Both the position numbers and the translations under genes were made by a program. This document shows positions 4,888 through 63,309 of a DNA stretch of 64,000 nt, one piece after another (position 1 is the stretch's first letter; every line of letters begins with the position of its first letter). The stretch is from an uncultured Gammaproteobacteria bacterium (GTDB taxonomy: Bacteria; Patescibacteriota; Patescibacteriia; UBA1558; GWA2-36-10). The stretch covers positions 141,861 to 205,860 of the forward strand of contig CAZWIT010000001.1 of the NCBI GenBank assembly GCA_964633905.1, given 5' to 3'. Under the pieces are notes generated by a model. That model saw only the letters and a list, made by a program, of their open reading frames with translations, searched no databases and was not told the DNA's origin.

Positions 4888-6126
4888 ATGAAAATAGCAA
4901 TTATTGGTGGTGGTGCAGCTGGTATGATGGCTGCGGCTACTATTAACGAAACTAATACTAAGATTGAAGTTTTTTTATTAGAAAAAAATGTTTCTTTAGG
5001 TAAAAAAGTAATTATCTCTGGCGGTGGGCGTTGTAATGTGACAACTGGTATTCAGGATATTAAAGTGGTTTTAACCAAATATCCGCGTGGTGCTAAATTT
5101 TTAAATTCCGCGATGTATAATTTTTCACCTAAAGCTGTTCAAGATTGGTTTACTGGTCACGGCGTGCCTTTAAAATGTGAAGCTGATGCTAGAGTATTTC
5201 CAGTTTCTAATAATGGTCAAGATATAGTAGCTGTTTTTGAAAAAATTTTTGCTAATAGTAATACTAAAGTTTTATTTAAACATTCAGTTCAGAAAATTGA
5301 ATATAAAAATCAACAATTTATTATTTATTGCCAAAATCAAAAAGTTTTAGTAGTTGATAAAGTTATTTTAACTTTAGGTGGGCAAGCTTATCGTCAGACC
5401 GGCTCTACCGGTGATGGTTACTTATTAGCAGAAAGATTAGGTCATAGTACTAGCGAGTTAGCTGCTAGTTTAAGTTCTTTGCTTACTAAAGAAAAATGGC
5501 CGGTTCAAGTGATGGGTTTGTCTTTTGCCAAAGCAAATTTTAAATTTAAGACTAATAAAAAACAGGAGTTTAGCGGACCTTTTGTTTTTACGCACTGGGG
5601 TTTAAGTGGGCCGGCGGTATTTGCTATGTCGGCATTGACGGCTTTTGAAAAAATTAGTCAAGAAAAACCACTAACTATATTTGTTGATATTATGCCAGAC
5701 TTAGCAGCTGAAAAAGTAGCAGTTCAAATTAAAAAATTTATGCAAGCTAATCCTAAAAAAACATTTAAATATGCTCTACAACCTTTGACTACTTTAGCTT
5801 TGGCTAATGTTATTTTAGAACAACTAAATATTTCTTTAGAAAAAAAGAATAGCGAACTTAGTAAGGCCGACTTAAATAAAACAGTAAATTTTTTAAAAAA
5901 CATACCTTTAACTATTGTAGGCAGAAGAGCTGGTGATGAGTTTGTAACAGCTGGTGGCATTAAATTAACAGAGGTAGATTCTAGTACTATGCAATCTAAA
6001 ATCTGCCCAAATTTATATTTTGCCGGAGAAATTTTAGATATTGATGGCTTTACGGGCGGTTTTAATTTGCAGGCAGCTTGGGCGACCGGACGACTAGCTG
6101 GCTTAAAAAGTAGTGCTATTAAATAA
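4888..6126 (+). CDS. NAD(FAD)-utilising flavoprotein, HI0933/BaiN family
   Basis: 412 aa; N-terminal GGGAAG dinucleotide fold, GGGRCNVT motif characteristic of HI0933-like proteins. Confidence 0.75.
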   Translation: MKIAIIGGGAAGMMAAATINETNTKIEVFLLEKNVSLGKKVIISGGGRCNVTTGIQDIKVVLTKYPRGAKFLNSAMYNFSPKAVQDWFTGHGVPLKCEADARVFPVSNNGQDIVAVFEKIFANSNTKVLFKHSVQKIEYKNQQFIIYCQNQKVLVVDKVILTLGGQAYRQTGSTGDGYLLAERLGHSTSELAASLSSLLTKEKWPVQVMGLSFAKANFKFKTNKKQEFSGPFVFTHWGLSGPAVFAMSALTAFEKISQEKPLTIFVDIMPDLAAEKVAVQIKKFMQANPKKTFKYALQPLTTLALANVILEQLNISLEKKNSELSKADLNKTVNFLKNIPLTIVGRRAGDEFVTAGGIKLTEVDSSTMQSKICPNLYFAGEILDIDGFTGGFNLQAAWATGRLAGLKSSAIK

Positions 6127-6154
6127 TTTATTATTTTTTAATTTTAATAAAGTT

Positions 6155-6685
6155 ATGAAAAAGGTAATTTTAGGTATTGGAATATCTGGTGCAGGTAAAA
6201 CAACTATATTAAAAGAATTTGCTCAAAAATATGATTATATTTATCTTTGCCCAGATGATATTAGGGAAGAAATATTGGGTAATGCTGCTGATCAGTCAAA
6301 AAATAAAGAAGTCTGGGCAGAAGCTAAACAAAGAATGAGTGATTATTTAGCTCAAGGTAAGACAGTTGTTTTTGATGCAACTTTTACCCAGGCTATTCAG
6401 CGTAAGGCCTTTATTGATTTTGCTAGAGAAAGTGGAGCAGATAAAATTCAAGGAATTTTGTTTGATACACCGCTTGATATTGCTATAGAGCGTAATGCAA
6501 AAAGAGAGCGTCAGGTTCCAGAATACGCTATTCAAAGAATGAATAATGATTTAAAAACGGCACAACCTAATATTAGTGAAGGACTGGATTCAATTTTTAC
6601 CCTTAACGAATATCAAGAATTAGTTGATGTTGATAGGGTAGAAAATAGAGAAGATTTTGAGCAAGGTTTTAAGAATATTCATTAA
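6155..6685 (+). CDS. P-loop kinase/ATPase (AAA_33/zeta-toxin-like fold)
   Basis: Walker A GISGAGKTT; start moved to internal ATG 6155 (MKKVILG...) because the track ORF start overlaps the upstream gene. Confidence 0.55.
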   Translation: MKKVILGIGISGAGKTTILKEFAQKYDYIYLCPDDIREEILGNAADQSKNKEVWAEAKQRMSDYLAQGKTVVFDATFTQAIQRKAFIDFARESGADKIQGILFDTPLDIAIERNAKRERQVPEYAIQRMNNDLKTAQPNISEGLDSIFTLNEYQELVDVDRVENREDFEQGFKNIH

Positions 6686-12000: not shown

Positions 12001-14419
12001 AGCATTTTATGCGGTAATGGACGACCAGGCTCATCCGATTGAATCAATTTATACTGATGTTGGCTCAGGCGTGATTTATACTAATTTTAGTCACCGTACT
12101 GCTTCTACTGATATGATGCGAGCTAATAGTATGGGTGCAGAAAAAGGTTGTTTCTTGTCAGGTACCGATATTTTGATGGCTGACGGTAGCTCAAAGAATA
12201 TCGAAGACGTGATCGTTGGTGATCAAGTTTTGACTTTAGCTGATCCGAGGGAGAGTAGGAAAACGGTCGGTACTGTCACTGAACTATATCGTCATACGGT
12301 TGGTAAATATTTGATTATTAATAATAAGCTAAAAGTAACTCCAGAGCATTTAATTTATACTAATTTTAGCTTTCGTCCAGCTTCTAGTTTAAAAATCGGT
12401 GACTGGTTGCTGACAGCTGATAATGAATTAATCTATATTAATTCTATAGAAACTAAAGACGAAATAGTGCCAGTTTATAATTTTAGAGTGGATCCGCAAC
12501 ATACTTTTTTTGCTAATGGATTTTTTGTTCATAATGAAAAAGGTGGTGGACCTAGAGAATTTTTTACCGATGCGGCCCTATTTCAAACAGTTAAAACCAG
12601 TAGTAATGGTGCAGTAAGCACTAGCTTTAAGTTGCCAGACAATATCACTTCTTGGCGGGTAACAGCTCAAGGCGTGAGTTCTAATATTGATGTTGGTTTA
12701 AATGTTTCTAAAATTCCAGTATCTTTGCCAGTTTTTGTGGATGTTACTATTGGTAAAGAATATTTAAGTGGTGATGAGCCAGTCGCTCGTTTGCGCTCTT
12801 TTGGTTCAGTTTTAAATAGTACTGATAGTTTGACTATGAGTTTATCAGCTCCTGATTTAGGCATTGAGACTCCGCAAACTAAAACTACGACTGCTTTTAA
12901 GTCCGAGTACTTTACTTTGCCTAGTTTAAGCGAGGGTAGCTACGACATTGTTTATTCTTTAGATTCAAGTAAGGGCAAAGACAGTGTTAAGTTACCATTA
13001 AAGGCTTTGAGCTCACTACTTACTGCCCAGTCTACTAATATTCAGGAGGCAACAGCCGATTTAGTAGTAGAAAATAAATCCAAGATACCATTGGCTGTTA
13101 ATTTTTCCGATCGAGAACGTAGCGCTGTCTTTAAAACTTTGGCTAAACTGACTTGGTCCGGTGGCGCTCGGATTGATCAGGGCTTAGCTAGAAAGATGAG
13201 TAGGCAGATATTAGAAGAAAAATTTGGCTGGCATAAATCTGATCCAGAATTTTCAGCTTTTAAATATCAAATGGCTAGCGGCGGTTTGACACTTTTGCCT
13301 TATAGTAGCGAAGATCTAGAATTATCAGCTCGAGTCGCAGCTTTGCATGTCAACGGTTTTGATAATATGGCTTTAACAAATTATTTTTTCAAAAAACTTG
13401 AAGATAAAAAAAGCACTCCCGAAGAAGTGACATTGGCCTTGTATGGCTTGTCAGCTATGGGTGAGCCAATTTTACCTAGACTTGAGGCTTGGGCAAAACG
13501 CGAAGATTTAAAACCAAAAGAACGTTTATATTTAGCTTTAGCTTATTATCAAGCTGGCTCTAGTGAAAAAGCGCGGGATATTTATTTTAATATTATGGAG
13601 CAATATGCCCAGGTTAAAGAGCCGCATGTTATTGTTAAAGTTAGTGATAACGAAGATGAGGTGTTAGAATTTACTACTTTAACAGCAGTGCTGGCAGCTT
13701 ATTTAAATGAAGCGCAGCAATATGGCATGATTGATTGGTTGCATTACTATCGACCTAATGATATTTTGTTATATTTAGAAGATTTAAATTATGCCATTGC
13801 TCACTTGCATAATCTAACGGACACTAACAGAAGTGTTAAATTTAGTGTTAACAATGAAGAAGTGACAGCTGAATTGAAGATGCCAAGCTTTTCTTATGCT
13901 TTTGAGTTAGCGGCGGGGCAGTCGTTAAAAGTTTTAAACGCTGATTCAGATATTATGTTGGCGACTAGTCAGCCAGTGCCGATTAGTCTTAGTGATATTA
14001 CTCCTGATGCTAGTCTGGTTTTAAAAAGAGAATATTTTGTAAATAATAAAAAAGTTAATACTTTTAAAGAAAATGATTTGATTGAAGTTAGATTATATAC
14101 TGATTTTAAAGAAGGCGCTTTAGATGGTTCTTATCAGATTACGGATGTGTTGCCAGCTGGCTTGTTGCCAATGAGCAGAGTCTATAATGGCTATAAGACT
14201 GAGGATTGTCATTATTATTACCCTTATTATTTAGAAGGACAAAAAGTAAAATTTATAGTTAGTAAAAATTGGAAGAAAAGTGTTTGCTCTGACTATATTA
14301 AATACTATGCTCGCGTCAAAACCAAAGGTAAATACAGGGCCGAGCCAGCTATTATACAATCAATGCTCAATAGTGATTATCTAAATTTTTCTAGTGAAGA
14401 TAAGGTGCAGATTGAATAA
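9002..14419 (+). CDS. giant (1805 aa) membrane-anchored extracellular multidomain protein; possibly alpha-2-macroglobulin/Ig-like-domain family, with embedded Hint/BIL domain
   Basis: Single uninterrupted ORF; N-terminal TM anchor; long beta-rich middle; helical C-terminal third; no CxEQ thioester motif, so the A2M assignment is tentative. Confidence 0.8.
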   Translation: MIKKLFSKEYLKGTAKRKVVAIIAIIISVGLVLASVFYFSGGWDRFKVKFGKQPSLFDGFSKLILNGANAQDNFDLEAVGADSLGIDVDTSFILTSKDDVSTEDVEKIIKLSPAIAYALEEKDKNKWEIKPKEPLNPNDIIRISMATAYVAEEGKEQSRYYDWAFQVKDSFKILNTIPRDTGVSVPVNSGIEITFSHENFYDYEKYFSLEPSVEGRFEKHGRTLVFVPKEPLALSQIYRVTLKQGLALSDSQEVLASDYTFAFETIQKKFQLRSSDRDPWLYLHEKLQDFAINEAPLLFLSAMNIPQDTLEVNVYPLAGQSEYIEILDKRDQYPWWSYSKDNQLVDLQNKNKLNSWKLKIEQQNNNQFIHFPEGLPKGYFVVEIKNGDINDQAILQISNASAYVNVAKDKTVVWVADLAAKKPASNAQVELLGDSQKYNGDAQGVASFTTPGQLTKEAFDKKDNKRYYFKASFGDESLIIPASYLSPYYGYWSNDIQANYWQYFYTDRPLYQPTDTIKFWGLLKLRNKQDSSNDQMKVELYKAGYVDYYYRPVMISEQSLSIDSDGIYSGQIDIKDLRSDYYYLQVKVGEQIVATKYLQVNPYEKPAYNLTLTPEKKAAFAGQEIKLTGLATYFEGTPVPNLALVFNTGSGSQKVTTDSEGKVNLVYTEKYNDCQSEYSCWPRNAWLELRPESSELADISASASLTFYGPSVYATQKVTYSDTAKGRLEIKTKKVDLNKAETPYWWGYDDKEAQIAPNVKIEGEVKQINYKRIETGTAYDFINKVSHKTYRYERSEKIVDNFVGISDGNGTYVYERQVEPETSYEISLKYYDSEGRYDVTRSYMYYSVGNRIYNYNGYNFDYYHLKLDKEEYSVSDEVVVDFLKNEENLPSNDNNYYLYLQHQNGLREYAVTQNSKYAFFFTNDDIPNVNLTGVYFNGRAFINTWGDSVRLKKADKTMSIDIKTDKEKYQPGEEVKLDIVTKNAKGEPVSAAVNLNLIDEAFYAVMDDQAHPIESIYTDVGSGVIYTNFSHRTASTDMMRANSMGAEKGCFLSGTDILMADGSSKNIEDVIVGDQVLTLADPRESRKTVGTVTELYRHTVGKYLIINNKLKVTPEHLIYTNFSFRPASSLKIGDWLLTADNELIYINSIETKDEIVPVYNFRVDPQHTFFANGFFVHNEKGGGPREFFTDAALFQTVKTSSNGAVSTSFKLPDNITSWRVTAQGVSSNIDVGLNVSKIPVSLPVFVDVTIGKEYLSGDEPVARLRSFGSVLNSTDSLTMSLSAPDLGIETPQTKTTTAFKSEYFTLPSLSEGSYDIVYSLDSSKGKDSVKLPLKALSSLLTAQSTNIQEATADLVVENKSKIPLAVNFSDRERSAVFKTLAKLTWSGGARIDQGLARKMSRQILEEKFGWHKSDPEFSAFKYQMASGGLTLLPYSSEDLELSARVAALHVNGFDNMALTNYFFKKLEDKKSTPEEVTLALYGLSAMGEPILPRLEAWAKREDLKPKERLYLALAYYQAGSSEKARDIYFNIMEQYAQVKEPHVIVKVSDNEDEVLEFTTLTAVLAAYLNEAQQYGMIDWLHYYRPNDILLYLEDLNYAIAHLHNLTDTNRSVKFSVNNEEVTAELKMPSFSYAFELAAGQSLKVLNADSDIMLATSQPVPISLSDITPDASLVLKREYFVNNKKVNTFKENDLIEVRLYTDFKEGALDGSYQITDVLPAGLLPMSRVYNGYKTEDCHYYYPYYLEGQKVKFIVSKNWKKSVCSDYIKYYARVKTKGKYRAEPAIIQSMLNSDYLNFSSEDKVQIE
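12149..12535 (+). other. Hint (intein-like / BIL) domain, about 129 aa, inside the giant CDS (C1050..N1178)
   Basis: Block A CFLSGTDILMADG, block B TPEH, block F/G VYNFRVDPQHTFFANGFFVHN; the residue after HN is Glu, not C/S/T. Confidence 0.7.
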
Positions 14420-17400: not shown

Positions 17401-18681
17401 ATGAAAATAAAAAGTATTGAAGCGCTAGAGATTTTAGACTCACGTGGTAACCCGACTGTCGAAGCTAGTGTGATTTTAGAAGATGGTTCTGTGGGCAGAG
17501 CAGCGGTGCCATCTGGTGCTTCCACTGGTAGCTATGAAGCTGTCGAATTACGTGATAATGATCCCAAGCGTTATAATGGTTTAGGTGTTTTAAATACAGT
17601 TAAAAATATTGAAACTATTATTGCCCCAGCTTTAGTGGGTCTTGAAGCAGGTGAGCAAAACCAGATTGACCAAGTTATGATTGATTTAGATGCTACTGAT
17701 AATAAAGCTAAGCTTGGCGCTAATGCTATTTTAGCAGTATCTCTGGCTACTGCCCGTGCTCAAGCTGAGTCAGAAAAAAAACCACTCTATGAATATTTAA
17801 GTAAATTTAATCCTGATTTTGCTGGCGATTATTTTTTGCCTTTGCCTATGATGAATATTATGAATGGCGGTAAGCATGCTAATTGGGCAACTGATATTCA
17901 GGAATACATGATTTTACCAATTGGCGCTAAGAATATGACTGATGCTGTTAGGATGTGTGCAGAAGTATATTTTAACTTAAAGAAAATTTTAAAAGCCAAA
18001 GGCTATGAAATCAGCGTTGGTGATGAAGGTGGTTTTGCACCAGCTGTCAAATCAAACAGTGAACCATTTGAATTAATGTCAGAAGCTGTACAAATTGCAG
18101 GCTACACCTTAGGTACAGATATTATTTTTGGCATTGATGCAGCTGCTACTGAGTTTTACCAAAATGGTGTTTATGAACTTAAAAAAGAAGCTAAAAATTT
18201 AAATAGTGCCGAACTAGCTGATTTTTATTTAGAAATTATTAAAAAATACCCAATCAAAACCGTGGAAGATATTTTTAGTGAAGATGATTGGAATGGTTTT
18301 AAAGATTTTTTAAACAAAACTGAAAATAAGATCCAGATTGTTGGTGATGATTTGTATGTGACTAATATCAAACGCTTGCAGCAGGGCATAGACACTAAAG
18401 CTTCTAATTCAATTTTAATCAAATTAAATCAAATCGGCACACTTAGCGAAACTATTGAGGCTATACTTTTGGCTCGTAAAAATAACATGACAGCTGTTAT
18501 TTCCCATCGTAGTGGTGAAACTGAAGACGCTTTTATTGCCGATCTTGCAGTAGCTTTAGGTACTGGGCAAATAAAGACAGGCGCACCAGCGCGTAGTGAA
18601 CGTACAGTAAAATATAATCGTTTACTTAAGATAGAAAAAGAATTAGGCGCCAAAGCTATTTTAAAGAAATTTCCTTTTTAG
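17401..18681 (+). CDS. eno: enolase (phosphopyruvate hydratase)
   Basis: 426 aa; the whole sequence is colinear with enolase (SRGNPTVE..., SHRSGETED). Confidence 0.95.
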
Positions 18682-24403: not shown

Positions 24404-24432
24404 TTGACAATTTATCTATTATATGCTATAAT
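24404..24432 (+). promoter_or_regulatory. consensus sigma70-type promoter TTGACA-N17-TATAAT
   Basis: TTGACA at 24404-24409, 17-nt spacer, TATAAT at 24427-24432. Confidence 0.5.
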
Positions 24433-24477
24433 AATAAGTATCAGTAGTGTTCTTCCCTCTAAACGAAGGAGCTAGTC

Positions 24478-24684
24478 ATGTCGCGTTTGACTTATGTCCT
24501 GACCGAGCCCTTGTGCCTGGTTTGCCGGACGGCGGCTCTGACCATCTACACACGCGAGGCCTACGCCCAGGAGATGGAGCGGTGTAGCTCGCTTGAGCGT
24601 CGCCGTTTCGAAGAGAGCATGGTCGGCGGCACCATCATTGGCCTGCTGGCCATCGCGGTCCATACCATCGTCAAGACTTTCTAG
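24478..24684 (+). CDS. small protein (68 aa) with C-terminal TM helix, GC-rich (about 58%)
   Basis: AAGGAG SD 7 nt upstream of ATG; own promoter and terminator; composition strongly deviates from flanks. Confidence 0.4.
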   Translation: MSRLTYVLTEPLCLVCRTAALTIYTREAYAQEMERCSSLERRRFEESMVGGTIIGLLAIAVHTIVKTF

Positions 24685-24714
24685 TTGCCCACGTGGCAAC
24701 AGAAGTCGCAAGTA

Positions 24715-24763
24715 AGCCCCGGGTTTTTCCGCAAGGAGATCCTGGGGCTGATTTTTTTATTTT
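24715..24763 (+). terminator. intrinsic terminator
   Basis: agccccgggtttttccgcaaggagatcctggggct hairpin followed by TTTTTTTATTTT. Confidence 0.6.
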
Positions 24764-24866
24764 AAAATTGCTTAGGCAAGTTGACAAATATTATTTTATC
24801 AGGCTAAATTAATTAGCTCTTTTCGTTTTAATTTGATCAATCAATTCCCCGCCAAAGGAGAAGCTT

Positions 24867-25157
24867 GTGCAACAAGCAGAAATCAAGAGTCTCTTAATTG
24901 AGTTAGCTCAAGATGACTGTTCTTTTGCGCGTCATCAAGAAGTTTCTCAGTTGTTTTATGCTGCTGCTCAGCGTCGGCCAGCACCTGACTCTACTACTGA
25001 TGATACTAGTATGTTATTTACAGCCATGCTCAATAAACTTTTGCGGATTGTGAATAAGAAACATTTGCCGGGCTTATTTCCGGTTTTTGCTATGTTGTGT
25101 GGCGATCGTTATGATTTTATTGGTTTTGCTGAAATTGACTGGGATTTGATGTCTTAG
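24867..25157 (+). CDS. hypothetical small protein (96 aa, GTG start)
   Basis: AAGGAGA SD before GTG; upstream TTGACA-N17-CTAAAT promoter (24781-24809); followed by terminator. Confidence 0.4.
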   Translation: MQQAEIKSLLIELAQDDCSFARHQEVSQLFYAAAQRRPAPDSTTDDTSMLFTAMLNKLLRIVNKKHLPGLFPVFAMLCGDRYDFIGFAEIDWDLMS

Positions 25158-25183
25158 TTTGATATTGATTGAATCAATTTTTG

Positions 25184-53449: not shown

Positions 53450-54115
53450 ATGTCAAATTTTGAAACAGCTAGCTCTACTCAAAATCAAGAATTTGGAGCT
53501 GATGTCTTATTAGACCAGTATGCGGAATTACTGGCTGGTAGAGAAGAAAAAGATATTGAGGACAAGGCAACTTTAGCAGAGTTATCAAGGCTTAAGGCTG
53601 CTATACTTTTGGCTCAATCAACGGCTAAAAAAATTGACAAAGAATTAAGTTGGGCCGGAACCAGGGCCAAGGAGGGCATTGCTTTAACACAAGAATCAGT
53701 AAAAGCTACAAAAGTAGATGATGTTAAATTAGCTTGGGAAAAATCTGATCCAGATGCTAACATTAACGCCATGATGGATCATTTAGAGAATCGAGAGCGA
53801 GCAAGACAAAGAGAAATGAATGATGTTCGTATAAAAATTAATTCAATTTTTCGCGAGATTACAGAAACAAGGCGTAAGATTTTAGAAGAGATTTTGCCAT
53901 ACTGTAAAAATGAATATAAACTGGGCATTGAAAATAGCTTGTCTAGATTAATGGATGAAATAGTTCAGCTTAATGAAGATTTAAACCATGACTCATGGGA
54001 AAGTAGTTTTGGCATAGAACAAGCTCAAGAATATGCTCAAGAATTTGGAGTCTTAAGCAGCCAAATGAAGACTTTGTATGAAGACAGTTTGGATGATTTA
54101 ACAGATTTAGACTAA
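53450..54115 (+). CDS. hypothetical acidic coiled-coil protein
   Basis: 221-aa ORF. Confidence 0.5.
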   Translation: MSNFETASSTQNQEFGADVLLDQYAELLAGREEKDIEDKATLAELSRLKAAILLAQSTAKKIDKELSWAGTRAKEGIALTQESVKATKVDDVKLAWEKSDPDANINAMMDHLENRERARQREMNDVRIKINSIFREITETRRKILEEILPYCKNEYKLGIENSLSRLMDEIVQLNEDLNHDSWESSFGIEQAQEYAQEFGVLSSQMKTLYEDSLDDLTDLD

Positions 54116-54164
54116 AGTAAGCCCCGTACTTGTTACGGGGTTTTTGTTATTAAGATTTAATATA

Positions 54165-54193
54165 TTGACATTTTATCATTTTTTTGTTATAGT
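54165..54193 (+). promoter_or_regulatory. consensus promoter TTGACA-N17-TATAGT driving element R1
   Basis: TTGACA 54165-54170, TATAGT 54188-54193. Confidence 0.5.
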
Positions 54194-54199
54194 CCTATA

Positions 54200-54550
54200 T
54201 CAGTACATTAAATCGGAGGGCTCCCTATGGGACCATGGAATAAAGGGCAGCCTTCTGCTCAATATGTCCTGGCTCTAATGAGCCCTCCTGCAAGCGCGGC
54301 CTAGAGAAGCATATCGCTTTTCGGCCGCAAGAGGCGACGCATCGTCGCCTGTGGCACTCTGCCACCGCTTCTTCGGTAAGCGAGAGACTGAAGCGTATAG
54401 CACCCCGTAGGAGAAGTTCCTGGTGAGGATTACCAGGACTGACCGCGTGCGGTGAGGTAGCCAACGATAAGGGCCGAAGGTGGGGACATGACTAAGGTTG
54501 AAGTAAGGACTAACACTTACTAGACTAAAAGTTTCTCCCCACTTTTTTAT
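54200..54550 (+). ncRNA. unclassified GC-rich structured RNA R1 (about 350 nt)
   Basis: At least 7 perfect hairpins (for example GGCGACGcatCGTCGCC, GTGGCActcTGCCAC, CCTGGTgaggattACCAGG); long-range GGAGGGCTC/GAGCCCTCC pairing; promoter plus terminal GGGGA...TCCCC-TTTTTT; GC far above flanks. Confidence 0.45.
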
Positions 54551-54575
54551 TTTGTTTAAAAATATGGTAAAATAT

Positions 54576-54598
54576 ACCCATAAAAATTTTTTATGGGT
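54576..54598 (+). promoter_or_regulatory. perfect 11-bp inverted repeat ACCCATAAAAA-t-TTTTTATGGGT spanning the hydB start codon
   Basis: Direct reading; ATG 54593 lies in the 3' arm. Confidence 0.35.
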
Positions 54599-55567
54599 AT
54601 TGATATTATTAATCAATTAAAAAGTGCTAATTTGTTGGGTAGAGGTGGAGCAGCCTTTCCTACTTGGCAAAAATGGGAATTGGTTAAAAATTTTAAATCT
54701 GATAAAAAATACATTGTAGCCAATGGTTCTGAGGGTGAACCTGGTACTTTGAAAGATGGCTATATTTTAGCTAACTATCCAGAACAATTAATTACTGGTA
54801 TCAAGATTGCTTTAGAAACAATTGATCATTCAGAAGCCTTTATTTTTTTGAATAAACAATATTTTCGCCAACATAAAGAACGTTTAACTAAATTAATTGG
54901 AAAATTACCAATTACTATTTTTGAAGAGCAGGGCGGCTATTTGTCTGGCGAAGAAACTATGATTTGCCAGGAAATTGAAAAGTCATTATTAAGGCCAAGG
55001 CAAAAACCACCTTTTACTGCTCAAGTTGGAATTTGGGGAAAGCCGACTTTAATTAATAATATTGAAACTTTTTACTATGTAGCTAAAATTGCAACTGCTG
55101 AGTACAAGCAAACTAGATTTTATTCTATTTCTGGTGATATTCCTTATGCTGGTGTTTATGAATTTCCACTTGCTTGGGATATAAACAAAGTGTTACTGGA
55201 AAGTAATAATTGGCCGCAAGGAGATTTTTTTGTTAGTGTTGGCGGTGGTGCTAGCGGTGAGATTTTGCTGGCGCATGAATTGCATCGACCTACGCCTGGC
55301 GGTGGAGTGATTGTGGTTTATGATAAAAAACACACTGATCCTTATCAGCTTTTAGTAAAGTGGGCTGATTTTTTTATTGCGGAAAATTGTGATAAATGTA
55401 CGCCTTGTCGGGAGGGTATTTATCGTTTGCGTGAAATGTTTAAAACACGCAATCTTGATAAAAAAACTATGGCTGAGTTGATTTTTATTTTAGAAAATAC
55501 TAGTTTTTGCCCTTTGGGTAAGATGGCGGCTTTGCCTTTTAAAACTTTAGTTAGTAAATTATTATGA
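54593..55567 (+). CDS. hydB: [FeFe]-hydrogenase-associated flavoprotein subunit (NuoF/HydB-like, NADH- and FMN-binding, 4Fe-4S)
   Basis: 324 aa; GRGGAAFPT, CDKCTPCREG motifs of NuoF family; translationally coupled to hydA. Confidence 0.75.
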   Translation: MGIDIINQLKSANLLGRGGAAFPTWQKWELVKNFKSDKKYIVANGSEGEPGTLKDGYILANYPEQLITGIKIALETIDHSEAFIFLNKQYFRQHKERLTKLIGKLPITIFEEQGGYLSGEETMICQEIEKSLLRPRQKPPFTAQVGIWGKPTLINNIETFYYVAKIATAEYKQTRFYSISGDIPYAGVYEFPLAWDINKVLLESNNWPQGDFFVSVGGGASGEILLAHELHRPTPGGGVIVVYDKKHTDPYQLLVKWADFFIAENCDKCTPCREGIYRLREMFKTRNLDKKTMAELIFILENTSFCPLGKMAALPFKTLVSKLL

Positions 55568-57282
55568 CTAGTTTTCATATAAAAATTAATGGTAAAGATT
55601 GCCTAGCTCAAGAAGGGCAAACAATTTTAGCAGTAGCAAAAATAAATAATATTAATATTCCAACTCTTTGCTATCATCCAGATATCAAGGTTCAAGCTAG
55701 CTGTCGTTTATGTGTGGTGGAGATCAAAGGCAAAAACGGTATGTTTACTGCTTGTTCTACCCAAATAGCAGACGGCATGGAAATTCAAACAGATACACCG
55801 TCTATTAGACTAGCACGTTTAAATAATTTACAACTTATTTTTTCTGAACATTGCGAAGAATGTAATGATTGTATTTTAAAACAAAAATGTTTAATCAAGA
55901 GTTTAGCTAAAGAATACCGGGTGCCAATTACTAAATTTCCCGATCGTAAAAAAGGTTTTCCAGTGCACCAATTTGGGCCAGCTCTACAATTTGATAGCTC
56001 TAAATGTGTTGATTGTGGTTTATGCGTTGATATGTGTAATCAACAAGTCGGATTTTTGGAATACAAAAAAAGAGGGGATTTTTGGGAAGTATGTCCGTCT
56101 GACAAAAAAGATAAAGATTGCATTTATTGTGGACAGTGCTTAACGCATTGCCCAGTTGGTGCTTTTGAAGCAATTGGCGAGTTTGAAGACGTAGATTTGC
56201 CCTTACGTGATAAAACTAAGACAGTTGTTTTTCAATTTGCGCCTTCAATTCGAGCAGCTATTGGTGAAGAATTTGATTTGCCATATGGTTCAGTGGTTAC
56301 TGGGCAGTTAGTAGCCGCTATTAAACAATTAGGCATAAAGCATGTTTTTGATGTTAGTGTTGGCGCTGATGTGACTACTATGGAAGAAGCTGAAGAGTTA
56401 GTTGAGCGGATTAAAACCGGTGGGAAACTGCCAATGTTTACTGCCTGTTGCCCTTCTTGGGTAAAATACATGGAATTTTTTGAACCTAAATTAGTACCGT
56501 ATTTAACAACAGTGCGTTCACCACAAATTATTATGGGTGGTCTGATCAAAACTTATTGGGCGCAAAAACAAGGTATTAATCCAAAAAATATTACTGTTGT
56601 TTCAGTTATGCCTTGTGTGGCCAAAAAATACGAAATTGAAAGACCAGAATTTAAAATTAAAGGTATCAAGCCAGTTGATTATGTAATGACAACTAGAGAA
56701 TTGGCTTGGTTATTTAAGAAAAATAACATTGATTTAAAAGATATTAAGCCAGCAGAGCTTGATCCAGCTTTGGGTATTCCAACTGGGGCCGGTGTGATTT
56801 ATGGTGCTTCTGGCGGCGTGATGGAATCAGCTTTGCGTACTGCTTATTTTAAATTAACTGGAGAAAGATTGGCTAATGTTGAATTTAAAGCAGTGCGCGG
56901 CTTAGAAGGTTTTAAAGAGGCAGAGGTAAAAATTGGCGAGCGAACAATTAAAGTGGCAGTTGTTAACCAAATGTCCAATGGCAAAAAGATTTTAGAAGAG
57001 CTAGCTAAAGATCCTCATAAATATGATTATATTGAAGTAATGTCTTGTCCGGGTGGTTGTATTGGTGGAGGCGGGCAACCAGTGCCAGTAAATGCTGAAA
57101 TTAGAAAAAAACGGGCGCAGGCTTTGTATGATATTGATGCTAGTAAAGATATTCGTCGCGCTGAAGATAGTGTGATTGTCAAGACCTTGTATCAAGAATT
57201 TTTAGCTGATCATAAAAATGTTCACCAGATAGCTCACACTAAATACAGTCCTAAGAAAAAAGAGGTTTACCCCGTCAAATAA
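55564..57282 (+). CDS. hydA: [FeFe] hydrogenase catalytic subunit with N-terminal 2Fe-2S and 4Fe-4S domains
   Basis: 572 aa; H-cluster motifs TACCPSW, MPCVAKKYE, EVMSCPGGCIGGGGQP. Confidence 0.9.
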   Translation: MTSFHIKINGKDCLAQEGQTILAVAKINNINIPTLCYHPDIKVQASCRLCVVEIKGKNGMFTACSTQIADGMEIQTDTPSIRLARLNNLQLIFSEHCEECNDCILKQKCLIKSLAKEYRVPITKFPDRKKGFPVHQFGPALQFDSSKCVDCGLCVDMCNQQVGFLEYKKRGDFWEVCPSDKKDKDCIYCGQCLTHCPVGAFEAIGEFEDVDLPLRDKTKTVVFQFAPSIRAAIGEEFDLPYGSVVTGQLVAAIKQLGIKHVFDVSVGADVTTMEEAEELVERIKTGGKLPMFTACCPSWVKYMEFFEPKLVPYLTTVRSPQIIMGGLIKTYWAQKQGINPKNITVVSVMPCVAKKYEIERPEFKIKGIKPVDYVMTTRELAWLFKKNNIDLKDIKPAELDPALGIPTGAGVIYGASGGVMESALRTAYFKLTGERLANVEFKAVRGLEGFKEAEVKIGERTIKVAVVNQMSNGKKILEELAKDPHKYDYIEVMSCPGGCIGGGGQPVPVNAEIRKKRAQALYDIDASKDIRRAEDSVIVKTLYQEFLADHKNVHQIAHTKYSPKKKEVYPVK

Positions 57283-58654: not shown

Positions 58655-59085
58655 CAAAAAGAAAAAGCCTCACCAATGGTAAGGCTTTCCGGGCTGGCTT
58701 ATACCTGTGTGGGACCATGTTGTCATAGTCCACAAAAAATTACACAAGTTGGGGAGCCCGTTCTGCGCTAGCGCGTCTGTACCCCGTAGGACGCTCTAGT
58801 TCTGAGGTCTGACCTCAGAAGTGGTGGAGGTTGCCAGGATAAGTCCTGTGTAAGCTGCAGTTTGCAGGTAGCGTTCAACGCTTGTGGCGGAACGACCAGT
58901 CCCTACGAACCAGCGGCTGCTAGCCAAGTTAACTCGAGGCCTTCGAGTCACTTGAGATACCTTTGTTTTGGGTATCCGCAATGTCCAGGTTAGCGCTAAC
59001 CTGAATATCGCAACAAGCAGTTGTCCACAGAGCTTATTAAGCCCCAGCAACCCCCGTCTATTCGATGAACTTTTACGATTTTGTA
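58655..59085. ncRNA. unclassified GC-rich structured RNA R2 (about 400 nt), homologous to R1; strand unresolved
   Basis: Shares TGGGACCATG, ACCCCGTAGGA, GTGGTGGAGG/GGTGAGG and GCCA..GATAAG with R1 in plus orientation; the intervening hairpin covaries. Yet promoter TTGACA-N18-TAGAAT and terminator are on the minus strand. Confidence 0.4.
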
Positions 59086-63056: not shown

Positions 63057-63085
63057 TTGACAGTTTTATTATTTTAGTTTATAAT
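63057..63085 (+). promoter_or_regulatory. perfect consensus promoter TTGACA-N17-TATAAT
   Basis: TTGACA 63057-63062, TATAAT 63080-63085. Confidence 0.55.
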
Positions 63086-63091
63086 AGCAAT

Positions 63092-63309
63092 TAATATTTG
63101 TTCTATAAGCTTGTCCCTTTGGCAGGTAGAATTGGACCTCCACCTGTCTAGGGGCGAGGCTGACTGCGGGCATTCGTAACATTATGCTCAAGGTCAGCTG
63201 AAGGCCGTACGCAAGAGAATAGGGTTGTGGCTCTCTCCTCCCAACCCAATCTCCGCACCAAAGCTTACGGTTCTTCGGGAGCTCTCGCCAAGAGAGCTCT
63301 TTTTATTTG
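63092..63309 (+). ncRNA. candidate small RNA R4 (about 215 nt), GC-rich, 5'/3' ends pair (rod-like), intrinsic terminator
   Basis: CTTTGG...AGAATTGG pairs with CCAATCT...CCAAAG; internal GCTGAC...GTCAGC hairpin; terminator gagctctcgccaagagagctc-TTTTTATTT. Confidence 0.4.

Follow-up and report, generated by a model that had tools for sequence, protein, structure and literature searches.

R1, a GC-rich intergenic unit at positions 54165–54548 of the window (the whole stretch of DNA analyzed, 64,000 nt), is judged from comparison of homologous loci to be a real and conserved gene for a structured RNA, unclassified and confined to a narrow clade of Patescibacteria (CPR) as far as known. It has been identified in five lineages of this single clade, where it precedes a NuoF-like/[FeFe]-hydrogenase operon, and what is preserved across these lineages is the pairing of the helices, not their sequence. 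R1 lies outside every curated RNA family, and we think it probable that R1 is a stand-alone RNA acting in trans.

Composition, folding and coding potential

The segment was initially described as having about 55% GC and being packed with helices, and both properties are seen here. The GC content is 55–57.5% in 200-nt windows across 54200–54499, compared to approximately 30–35% in the flanks and 33–34% overall (window/genome). The 358-nt fragment 54195–54552 has the minimum free energy (MFE) of –148.1 kcal/mol, the dinucleotide shuffles yielding –111.8 ± 5.1 (z = –7.1); none of 100 shuffles fold as stably as the plus strand of R1, while its reverse strand reaches z = –3.2 only. Each R1 homologue also out-folds its own shuffles (z from –4.0 to –6.9). 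The previously described features of R1 are real and far exceed chance.

High-GC sequence is stable on folding anyway, and one could regard R1 as a non-functional GC-rich remnant (a decayed gene, a mobile-element fragment or an assembly artefact) that folds by chance. However, the above z-scores have been obtained with dinucleotide shuffles of equal composition, and, given also the conservation described below, we consider this explanation extremely improbable.

A conserved open reading frame was sought among the homologues on both strands and none was found; as the frame and length of the ORFs vary by lineage, the region is considered non-coding. The protein-coding reading of R1 is rejected accordingly, in line with the initial annotation, which fitted no protein gene here and treated the minus-strand ORFs as artefacts.

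Transcription unit

Sequence signals predict that R1 is made from a near-consensus sigma-70 promoter of its own and that a long terminator hairpin, likewise its own, ends the transcript. The unit and its boundaries are as follows.

54165–54548, plus strand: R1 unit from the promoter to U6, predicted RNA of ~350 nt
54119–54143, plus strand: intrinsic terminator of the upstream 221-aa gene (10-bp stem and T-run, terminator scan), 5' boundary of the R1 unit
54165–54170 and 54188–54193, plus strand: R1 promoter, TTGACA and TATAGT with a 17-nt spacer (11/12 sigma-70 match, TG-extended –10)
54199–54214, plus strand: predicted single-stranded 5' leader AUCAGUACAUUAAAUC, with AGUAC and UUAAAU conserved in the alignment of the four lineages with the 5' end
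54480–54548, plus strand: terminal hairpin and U6 (MFE and centroid fold), R1 terminator and 3' end
54564–54572, plus strand: TGGTAAAAT, predicted extended –10 of the NuoF-like/HydA operon, 3' boundary, outside R1

The promoter, reported earlier as TTGACA-N17-TATAGT, is the top-scoring site in a promoter scan of 2 kb around R1, and a TTGAC(A/T)-17-TAnnnT promoter is found at the same position in L003, L006, L004, and L007, that is, in all four lineages with the recovered 5' end (the sequence of L015, cut 5' of the promoter position, covers the 3' 220 nt of R1 only). Spacing from the –10 box would place the transcription start at approximately 54199–54202, and the predicted transcript begins with single-stranded AUCAGUAC...UUAAAU. 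As the upstream 221-aa gene ends at its own terminator, R1 is a separate transcription unit; a hairpin with a T-run is found at this position in other lineages too.

At the 3' end GUGGGGA (54480–54486) pairs with UCUCCCCAC (54534–54542), and UUUUUU (54543–54548) follows. The intrinsic terminator noted earlier thus stands: a long terminal hairpin with a U-run is present in all five lineages, three of its six base columns being compensatory. A simple terminator scan did not pick up this hairpin, presumably because it is long and branched. With its predicted promoter and terminator, no conserved ORF and covarying helices, R1 has what is generally looked for in a stand-alone ncRNA gene.

Genomic context and distribution

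The gene order in the window is SDR, a 154-aa protein, a 221-aa protein, R1, a NuoF-like protein (Complex1_51K), a HydA-type [FeFe] hydrogenase and a 171-aa protein, the latter with a weak ECF-S-component-like match. Homologues of R1 have been reached only via synteny, by tracing the NuoF-like and 221-aa proteins into public assemblies, which derive from SRR13355620, DRR784968, ERZ27282891, SRR33902050, SRR30230051, and ERR14822418. The family of the 221-aa protein has five members among 5.8 billion proteins.

The copies of R1 in L001 and L002 are identical to W (the copy carried by the window itself), and those in L017–L019 are identical to L003. This identity across independent samples and assemblies, as well as conservation of the promoter and terminator, argues against a non-functional remnant. 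NuoF is 81% identical in L006 (nhmmer against W R1, 1.5e-22), 79% in L015, 78% in L004 (= L005, L011, L013), where a tRNA-synt_1b gene lies between R1 and nuoF, and 74% in L007, which has a minimal R1 without the 5' domain. NuoF-like homologues of at least 74% identity carry R1 upstream. In L008 and L009 (NuoF 63%) R1 is not seen in the only ~100 nt available 5' of nuoF, and hence synteny is lost at 63% NuoF identity. Further look-ups of homologues yielded only copies identical to L003, or a contig ending before R1.

An exact-pattern scan of 185,579 species genomes with GAGGGCTCCCN{3,5}GGGACCATG, a probe in the 5' domain, returned one true match (the L004 contig) and one Actinomycetota contig, taken as chance. 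A scan of metagenome contigs with CCTGGCGTATCGCCAGGNTAA returned the L004 contig again and two random matches in GC-rich coding sequence. So narrow a spread, with a single true match to the 5' motif, would fit a non-functional remnant; both probes sit in dispensable modules (the 5' domain and h4), and therefore the true distribution is probably underestimated and the known range is a lower bound. Blastn against phage and plasmid collections yielded zero matches to R1, which speaks against a fragment of a mobile element.

Helix anatomy

The modules of R1 downstream of the leader are listed below.

54215–54288, plus strand: variable 5' domain, 74 nt, found in W, L003, L006, and L004 but missing from L007
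54296–54328, plus strand: h3, outer GCGGCC/GGCCGC, inner GAGAAGC/GCUUUUC, loop AUAUC, in the four covering lineages
54333–54349, plus strand: h4, GGCGACG/CGUCGCC, loop CAU, absent in L015
54351–54365, plus strand: h5, GUGGCA/UGCCAC, in all five lineages, longer in L004 and L007
54366–54395, plus strand: h6, CGCUUC/GAAGCG, 18-nt loop with GGUAAG, in all lineages, stems differ
54401–54454, plus strand: h7 domain, outer CACC/GGUG (54401–04/54451–54), inner UCCUGGU/ACCAGGA (54418–24/54432–38)
54460–54474, plus strand: h8 hairpin, GCC/GGC, conserved 9-nt loop AACGAUAAG, consensus WACGWYAMK

The order of the core is constant, comprising h3 (outer and inner), h4, h5, h6, the junction GUA(U/A/G/C)..., the h7 domain, h8, and the terminal hairpin, with a short junction CGAAG/CAAGA between the last two; every lineage repeats the eight helices without a change of order. 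Peripheral modules come and go: the 5' domain is wholly missing from L007, where the leader runs directly into h3, and h4 is missing from L015.

The initial annotation described GGAGGGCUC (54215–54223) and GAGCCCUCC (54280–54288) as a long-range stem closing R1. The stem itself exists, both strands being present and perfectly complementary; however, the strands are only ~65 nt apart, so that the stem closes the 74-nt 5' sub-domain, the one absent in L007, and not the whole of R1. Inside this domain are the hairpins UCCC/GGGA (54222–25/54229–32) and GGGCAG/CUGCUC (54245–50/54255–60), and a local hairpin GGCUC/GAGCC (54271–75/54280–84) competes with the nine-pair stem for its 3' strand, the two overlapping by 2–3 nt. 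We observe two independent compensatory changes in the local hairpin (GACUC/GAGUC in L003 and GGGUC/GACCC in L004) and one in the nine-pair stem (AGAGGG/CCCUCU in L006), of which L004 keeps six pairs only. The local hairpin is better backed by covariation than the long stem.

In h3 five of the 11 pair columns are compensatory, with zero mismatches, and the 5'-side GCC-Y-AG-R-G is conserved. Compensatory changes are further seen in all five aligned pair columns of h4 (W vs. L006 vs. L004/L007), in two of five columns of h5, and in three of four inner columns of h6, the latter also having one C.A mismatch (L007). The outer stem of h7 is GCGUC/GACGC in L006, L015, and L004 and GCCCCG/CGGGGC in L007 (three of four columns compensatory), and the h8 stem is CCG/CGG in L006, GUCA/UGAC in L015, and GGAGG/CCUCC in L007 (three of three). 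The h8 loop takes the forms AACGAUAAG, UACGAUACU, UACGACAAU, and UACGUUAAG by lineage, A2, C3, G4, and A7 being invariant. Long-range pairing of the 5' GUAC with GUA(C/U) after h6 is possible and shows no covariation in the lineage alignment.

Covariation and selection

With MAFFT and RNAalifold run unguided on four sequences, the variable hairpins were misaligned and, as a result, the covariation term came out weak (+1.56); the helices were therefore defined by hand. Helix strands were extracted manually with the register fixed at the helix base (at the loop for h8), and pairs were counted by a script. The sample comprises five lineages of one clade, four of them full length; the h8 columns exclude L004, since the assignment of h8 is uncertain there, and the register of the h7 closing stem in L004 is ambiguous.

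The eight helices form 38 pair columns with 171 cells, and 170 of these cells are canonical in the hand alignment of the five lineages. When the 3' partners are shuffled among lineages, 127.8 ± 4.5 cells are canonical, and none of 5000 shuffles reach 170. Compensatory double changes are present in 24 of the 38 columns, which weighs against a non-functional remnant; in two columns the changes are confined to one side, and 12 do not vary. Lack of conservation and covariation in related genomes had been named from the outset as an outcome that would overturn the assignment of R1 as an RNA gene, and both are present.

Between the close relatives W and L003, R1 is 96.9% identical (11 aligned columns differ), compared to 88.0% DNA identity of the nuoF-like gene, with 70 of 248 third codon positions different (28%), 83.3% of the upstream gene and 84.3% of the promoter-side spacer. 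R1 thus evolves several-fold slower than the neighboring genes, contrary to what is expected of a remnant. Between W and L006 the identity of R1 falls to 64% (nuoF, 77.6%) with all helices kept; such low identity with preserved helices is typical of structure-constrained RNA.

Comparison with known RNA families

With Rfam 15 (4227 models) at gathering thresholds, two tRNAs were found in the whole window and R1 was unmatched. At E ≤ 10 the region 54050–54650 yielded chance-level matches only, on flanking terminators or short pieces of R1. The loci of L004, L006, and L007 likewise gave no match to R1, at gathering thresholds or at E ≤ 10, beyond sub-threshold matches of this chance-level or flanking kind, and the same holds for the minimal R1 of L007 taken alone. 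ARAGORN identified two tRNAs only and no tmRNA in the window. Hence the cmscan comparison proposed in the initial annotation returned no housekeeping RNA in the window or in the three homologous loci, R1 retains its unclassified status, and the rejection of RNase P RNA, tmRNA, SRP RNA and T-box, made there by eye, agrees with the covariance models.

Still, R1 could be a housekeeping RNA of this CPR lineage (RNase P RNA, tmRNA, SRP RNA or 6S/Ms1-like) so strongly diverged that it escapes the curated models. Its size, strong promoter, high GC content and strong purifying selection would fit. Moreover, two more unclassified GC-rich units are present in the same 64 kb, where the genes for RNase P, tmRNA, SRP and 6S RNAs are not seen; however, absence of canonical genes from a window this small carries no weight. 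Across four lineages, searches confined to 600 nt and run at E ≤ 10 brought not even a weak match to the models of these four RNAs, and overall we regard a diverged housekeeping RNA as very unlikely. The individual families are considered below.

RNase P RNA is marked by CR-I (GGAAAGUCC) and CR-V (ACAGAA..GGCUUA), which form helix P4. It is close to R1 in length and GC bias, and the R1 string GGGCUCC-UA-GGG resembles the P5/P7 region of RNase P RNA and the segment GGGCUCCAUAGGGCA of E. coli M1 RNA; a similarity of this string to RNase P RNA was already pointed out in the initial annotation. The string is indeed present, but it belongs to the 5' domain, which L007 lacks. On reading of R1 both CR-I and CR-V are absent, RF00010 and RF00011 are unmatched at E ≤ 10 (W, L004, L006, and L007), and RNase P RNA is rejected.

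A tmRNA would show a tRNA-like domain (acceptor stem, T-arm and 3' CCA) together with a tag reading frame inside the molecule. Both ARAGORN and the covariance model are negative, and the 3' end of R1 is a terminator and not a T-arm with CCA. SRP RNA, either 4.5S or the long Bacillus type, is characterized by helix 8 of domain IV with a GNAR tetraloop and conserved symmetric and asymmetric loops; this motif is read in no lineage, and the models are unmatched at E ≤ 10.

6S RNA is a rod-like duplex of ~180 nt with a large central bubble mimicking an open promoter. R1 shares with 6S/Ms1 RNA the organization of a stand-alone promoter-to-terminator RNA, highly structured and under strong purifying selection, and a trans-acting, protein-binding role for R1 is plausible. 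On the other hand, both the MFE and centroid folds of R1 are a row of separate hairpins rather than a rod with a bubble, and the covariance model is unmatched, so 6S RNA is rejected as well.

T-box leaders contain Stem I with a specifier loop and a T-box antiterminator competing with the terminator, and precede aminoacyl-tRNA synthetase or amino-acid genes. Similarly to T-boxes and other terminating riboswitches, R1 precedes an operon in the same orientation and combines a domain of several helices with an intrinsic terminator behind it; in L004 it is indeed an aminoacyl-tRNA synthetase gene that comes next. In L004 and L007 UGGUACAGC is reminiscent of the T-box sequence GGUGGUACCGCG, but it is located ~150 nt from the terminator and is absent in W, L006, and L015. 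Unlike these leaders, R1 is followed by a separate promoter between its terminator and the gene, an antiterminator was not found, and the covariance models, including RF00230, are unmatched. Four of the five lineages have a nuoF-like gene next downstream, and the T-box assignment is also rejected.

Of the larger orphan RNAs, ROOL, GOLLD, OLE, raiA, and HEARO are unmatched (Rfam 15) in every lineage searched. Orphan structured ncRNAs such as raiA, ROOL, OLE, and further candidates of the Breaker-lab IGR pipeline were found as long GC-rich intergenic regions of AT-rich genomes (PMC6429828, PMC8632094, PMC11109978). R1 resembles them in being a gene-free GC-rich region with its own promoter and terminator, covarying helices and uninformative context, and differs in that it matches no family, is smaller than ROOL, GOLLD, and OLE, and is confined so far to one Patescibacteria clade. 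A text search of one of these surveys (PMC11109978) for CPR terms returned none, and we found no description of R1 in papers on ncRNAs of CPR, on RNase P of Patescibacteria or on surveys of GC-rich intergenic regions. R1 is therefore new at the level of RNA family, in the sense that no relation to a known family was detected; this novelty is not claimed for its mechanism.

Relation to the downstream operon

In all five lineages R1 directly precedes the NuoF-like/[FeFe]-hydrogenase operon and shares its strand, as one would expect of a cis-regulatory leader (riboswitch or attenuator), in which a ligand or factor is sensed and the terminator gates read-through. In agreement with this, the R1 terminator ends ~45 nt before the ATG, the multi-helix build includes conserved junction and loop nucleotides, and a hairpin sequestering the nuoF start codon covaries (CCCAU/AUGGG, CUCAU/AUGAG, GGCAU/AUGCC).

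However, a perfectly conserved extended –10 is located between the R1 terminator and the ATG, and the 17-nt block AAAAATATGGTAAAATA in this interval is identical in all five lineages. In L004 the first downstream gene is the tRNA synthetase, inserted behind AAAAATATGGTAAAATA, which stays attached to the R1 terminator. In L008 and L009 the elements TGnTAAAAT/TGTTATAAT are found 10–15 nt before the NuoF ATG without room for R1; as these relatives share the extended –10 type, the operon has a promoter of its own. Conserved pairing competing with either terminator strand, as an antiterminator or anti-sequestor, was not found by inspection of the folds and the alignment. Of the features generally expected of a riboswitch, adjacency and the terminator are present, whereas the terminator is followed by a conserved extended –10 and alternative pairing was not seen by inspection. 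Moreover, an aptamer core does not usually gain or lose entire helices, as R1 does with its 5' domain and h4, and the Rfam riboswitch models are unmatched. We consider a cis-regulatory leader unlikely. Given the separate operon promoter and the lack of an antiterminator on inspection, we favor a stand-alone RNA, which probably acts in trans, over a riboswitch.

Possible role of R1

R1 (~350 nt here, ~250–390 nt in relatives) would be made from its own promoter to its own terminator, and the comparison of lineages shows that it folds into an ordered series of helices (h3–h8 and the terminal hairpin) behind a short single-stranded 5' end. It would then act in trans as a stable structural RNA, most likely by partnering a protein or serving as its scaffold. 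Candidate recognition sites are the h8 loop with its invariant positions (.ACG..A..) and AGUAC/UUAAAU, conserved at the 5' end. Both the action in trans and the scaffold role are our guess, arrived at by exclusion. The adjacent 221-aa protein is acidic, and it is unlikely to be an RNA binder.

Two further unclassified promoter-to-terminator GC-rich units, R2 (59078–58660, minus strand) and R3, are located within 9 kb. R1 and R2 have runs of perfect complementarity of 10 and 11 nt, the putative pairing sites being UGGGACCAUG and ACCCCGUAGGA; two perfect runs of at least 10 nt were observed in none of 300 shuffles. Across the window, however, 11-mers shared with R1 turn up seven times, five same-sense and two complementary. 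No R2 homologue was detectable in the other R1 loci, and the putative base-pairing between R1 and R2 is a lead only.

The genomes of Patescibacteria (CPR) are tiny, and hardly any of these bacteria have been cultured. As a 250–390-nt RNA that looks strongly expressed and is under strong purifying selection in such tiny genomes, R1 is likely needed by the cell. One may speculate, with rather low confidence, that R1 founds a new class of medium-sized structured RNAs of this clade with a dedicated biochemical role, as a ribozyme or a subunit of an unknown RNP, and is possibly one of several. R1 makes a solid candidate for a new class of RNA in reduced genomes, within the limits of a narrow family known from five lineages. 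If confirmed, R1 would add a new structured RNA class, and together R1, R2, and R3, if confirmed, would suggest a lineage-specific set of structured RNAs in CPR genomes, overlooked by standard annotation.

Additional GC-rich transcription units

Two more unclassified GC-rich units have been identified within 9 kb of R1, the structured RNA candidate of about 350 nt, each with a promoter, a terminator and a stable predicted fold:

59113–58655, minus strand: R2, second unclassified GC-rich RNA unit
63057–63305, plus strand: R3, third unclassified unit

The R2 promoter (TTGACA–17–TAGAAT, 59113–59085, minus strand) precedes an RNA of about 420 nt with the terminator AAGCCUUACCAUUGGUGAGGCUUUUU near 58690–58660, and its fold has an MFE of –172.9 kcal/mol (z = –6.9). 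The R3 RNA is about 214 nt long with GC content up to 57%, lies between the TTGACA–17–TATAAT promoter (63057–63085) and the terminator GAGCUCUCGCCAAGAGAGCUCUUUUU (63279–63304), and has a fold z-score of –4.2. Relevant Rfam matches were found for neither R2 nor R3 at E ≤ 10, and no homologue of R2 was detected by nhmmer across the other loci.

R1 and the minus-strand R2 RNA share two runs of perfect complementarity, one of 10 nt (UGGGACCAUG, R1 54228–54237 and R2 58710–58719), and the other of 11 nt (ACCCCGUAGGA, R1 54402–54412 and R2 58781–58791); two such runs together were observed in none of 300 shuffles. On the other hand, seven 11-mers in the entire window are common with R1, five of them in the same sense and two complementary. 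Pairing of R1 with R2 is a tentative lead.

GC-rich islands are also observed elsewhere. In the window, the stretches concerned are 24431–24760 and 24850–25160. A 330-nt island, with GC content up to 64%, follows a TTGACA–17–TATAAT promoter and contains a 68-codon ORF (ATG at 24479) with an AAGGAG Shine-Dalgarno sequence, and a terminator; a second small ORF is located downstream, and the composition looks foreign compared to the rest of the genome. In L004, a related lineage with a homologous R1 locus, islands of 57–64% GC are found at 5788–6473, 13381–14050 and 17531–17950, the first and the last without genes, the middle one overlapping a called 109-aa minus-strand ORF. These L004 islands may represent further structured RNAs that annotation has missed; nhmmer detected no similarity between them and R1, R2 or R3.

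The hydrogenase operon and its start-codon hairpin

Downstream of R1, on the same strand, we observe:

54574–54600: hairpin AUACCCAUAAAAA/UUUUUAUGGGUAU, enclosing the ATG (54593) at which the nuoF-like gene starts
54593–57282: NuoF-like and HydA-type [FeFe] hydrogenase genes, overlapping by 4 nt
L004 8993–9997: tRNA-synt_1b gene (TrpRS/TyrRS-type), between the R1 terminator-plus-promoter block and nuoF

The NuoF-like protein (324 aa, domains Complex1_51K and NADH_4Fe-4S) and the HydA-type hydrogenase (572 aa) form a pair conserved in many Patescibacteria; over 1200 homologues reach E ≤ 1e-60. The inserted L004 gene ends with a stop codon 3 nt before the nuoF start.

Compensatory changes in the hairpin retain pairing while altering codon 2: the stem is CCCAU/AUGGG with Gly in the window lineage, CUCAU/AUGAG with Ser in L003, and GGCAU/AUGCC with Pro in L006, the latter two being related lineages. 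This hairpin may provide translational control of the hydrogenase operon.
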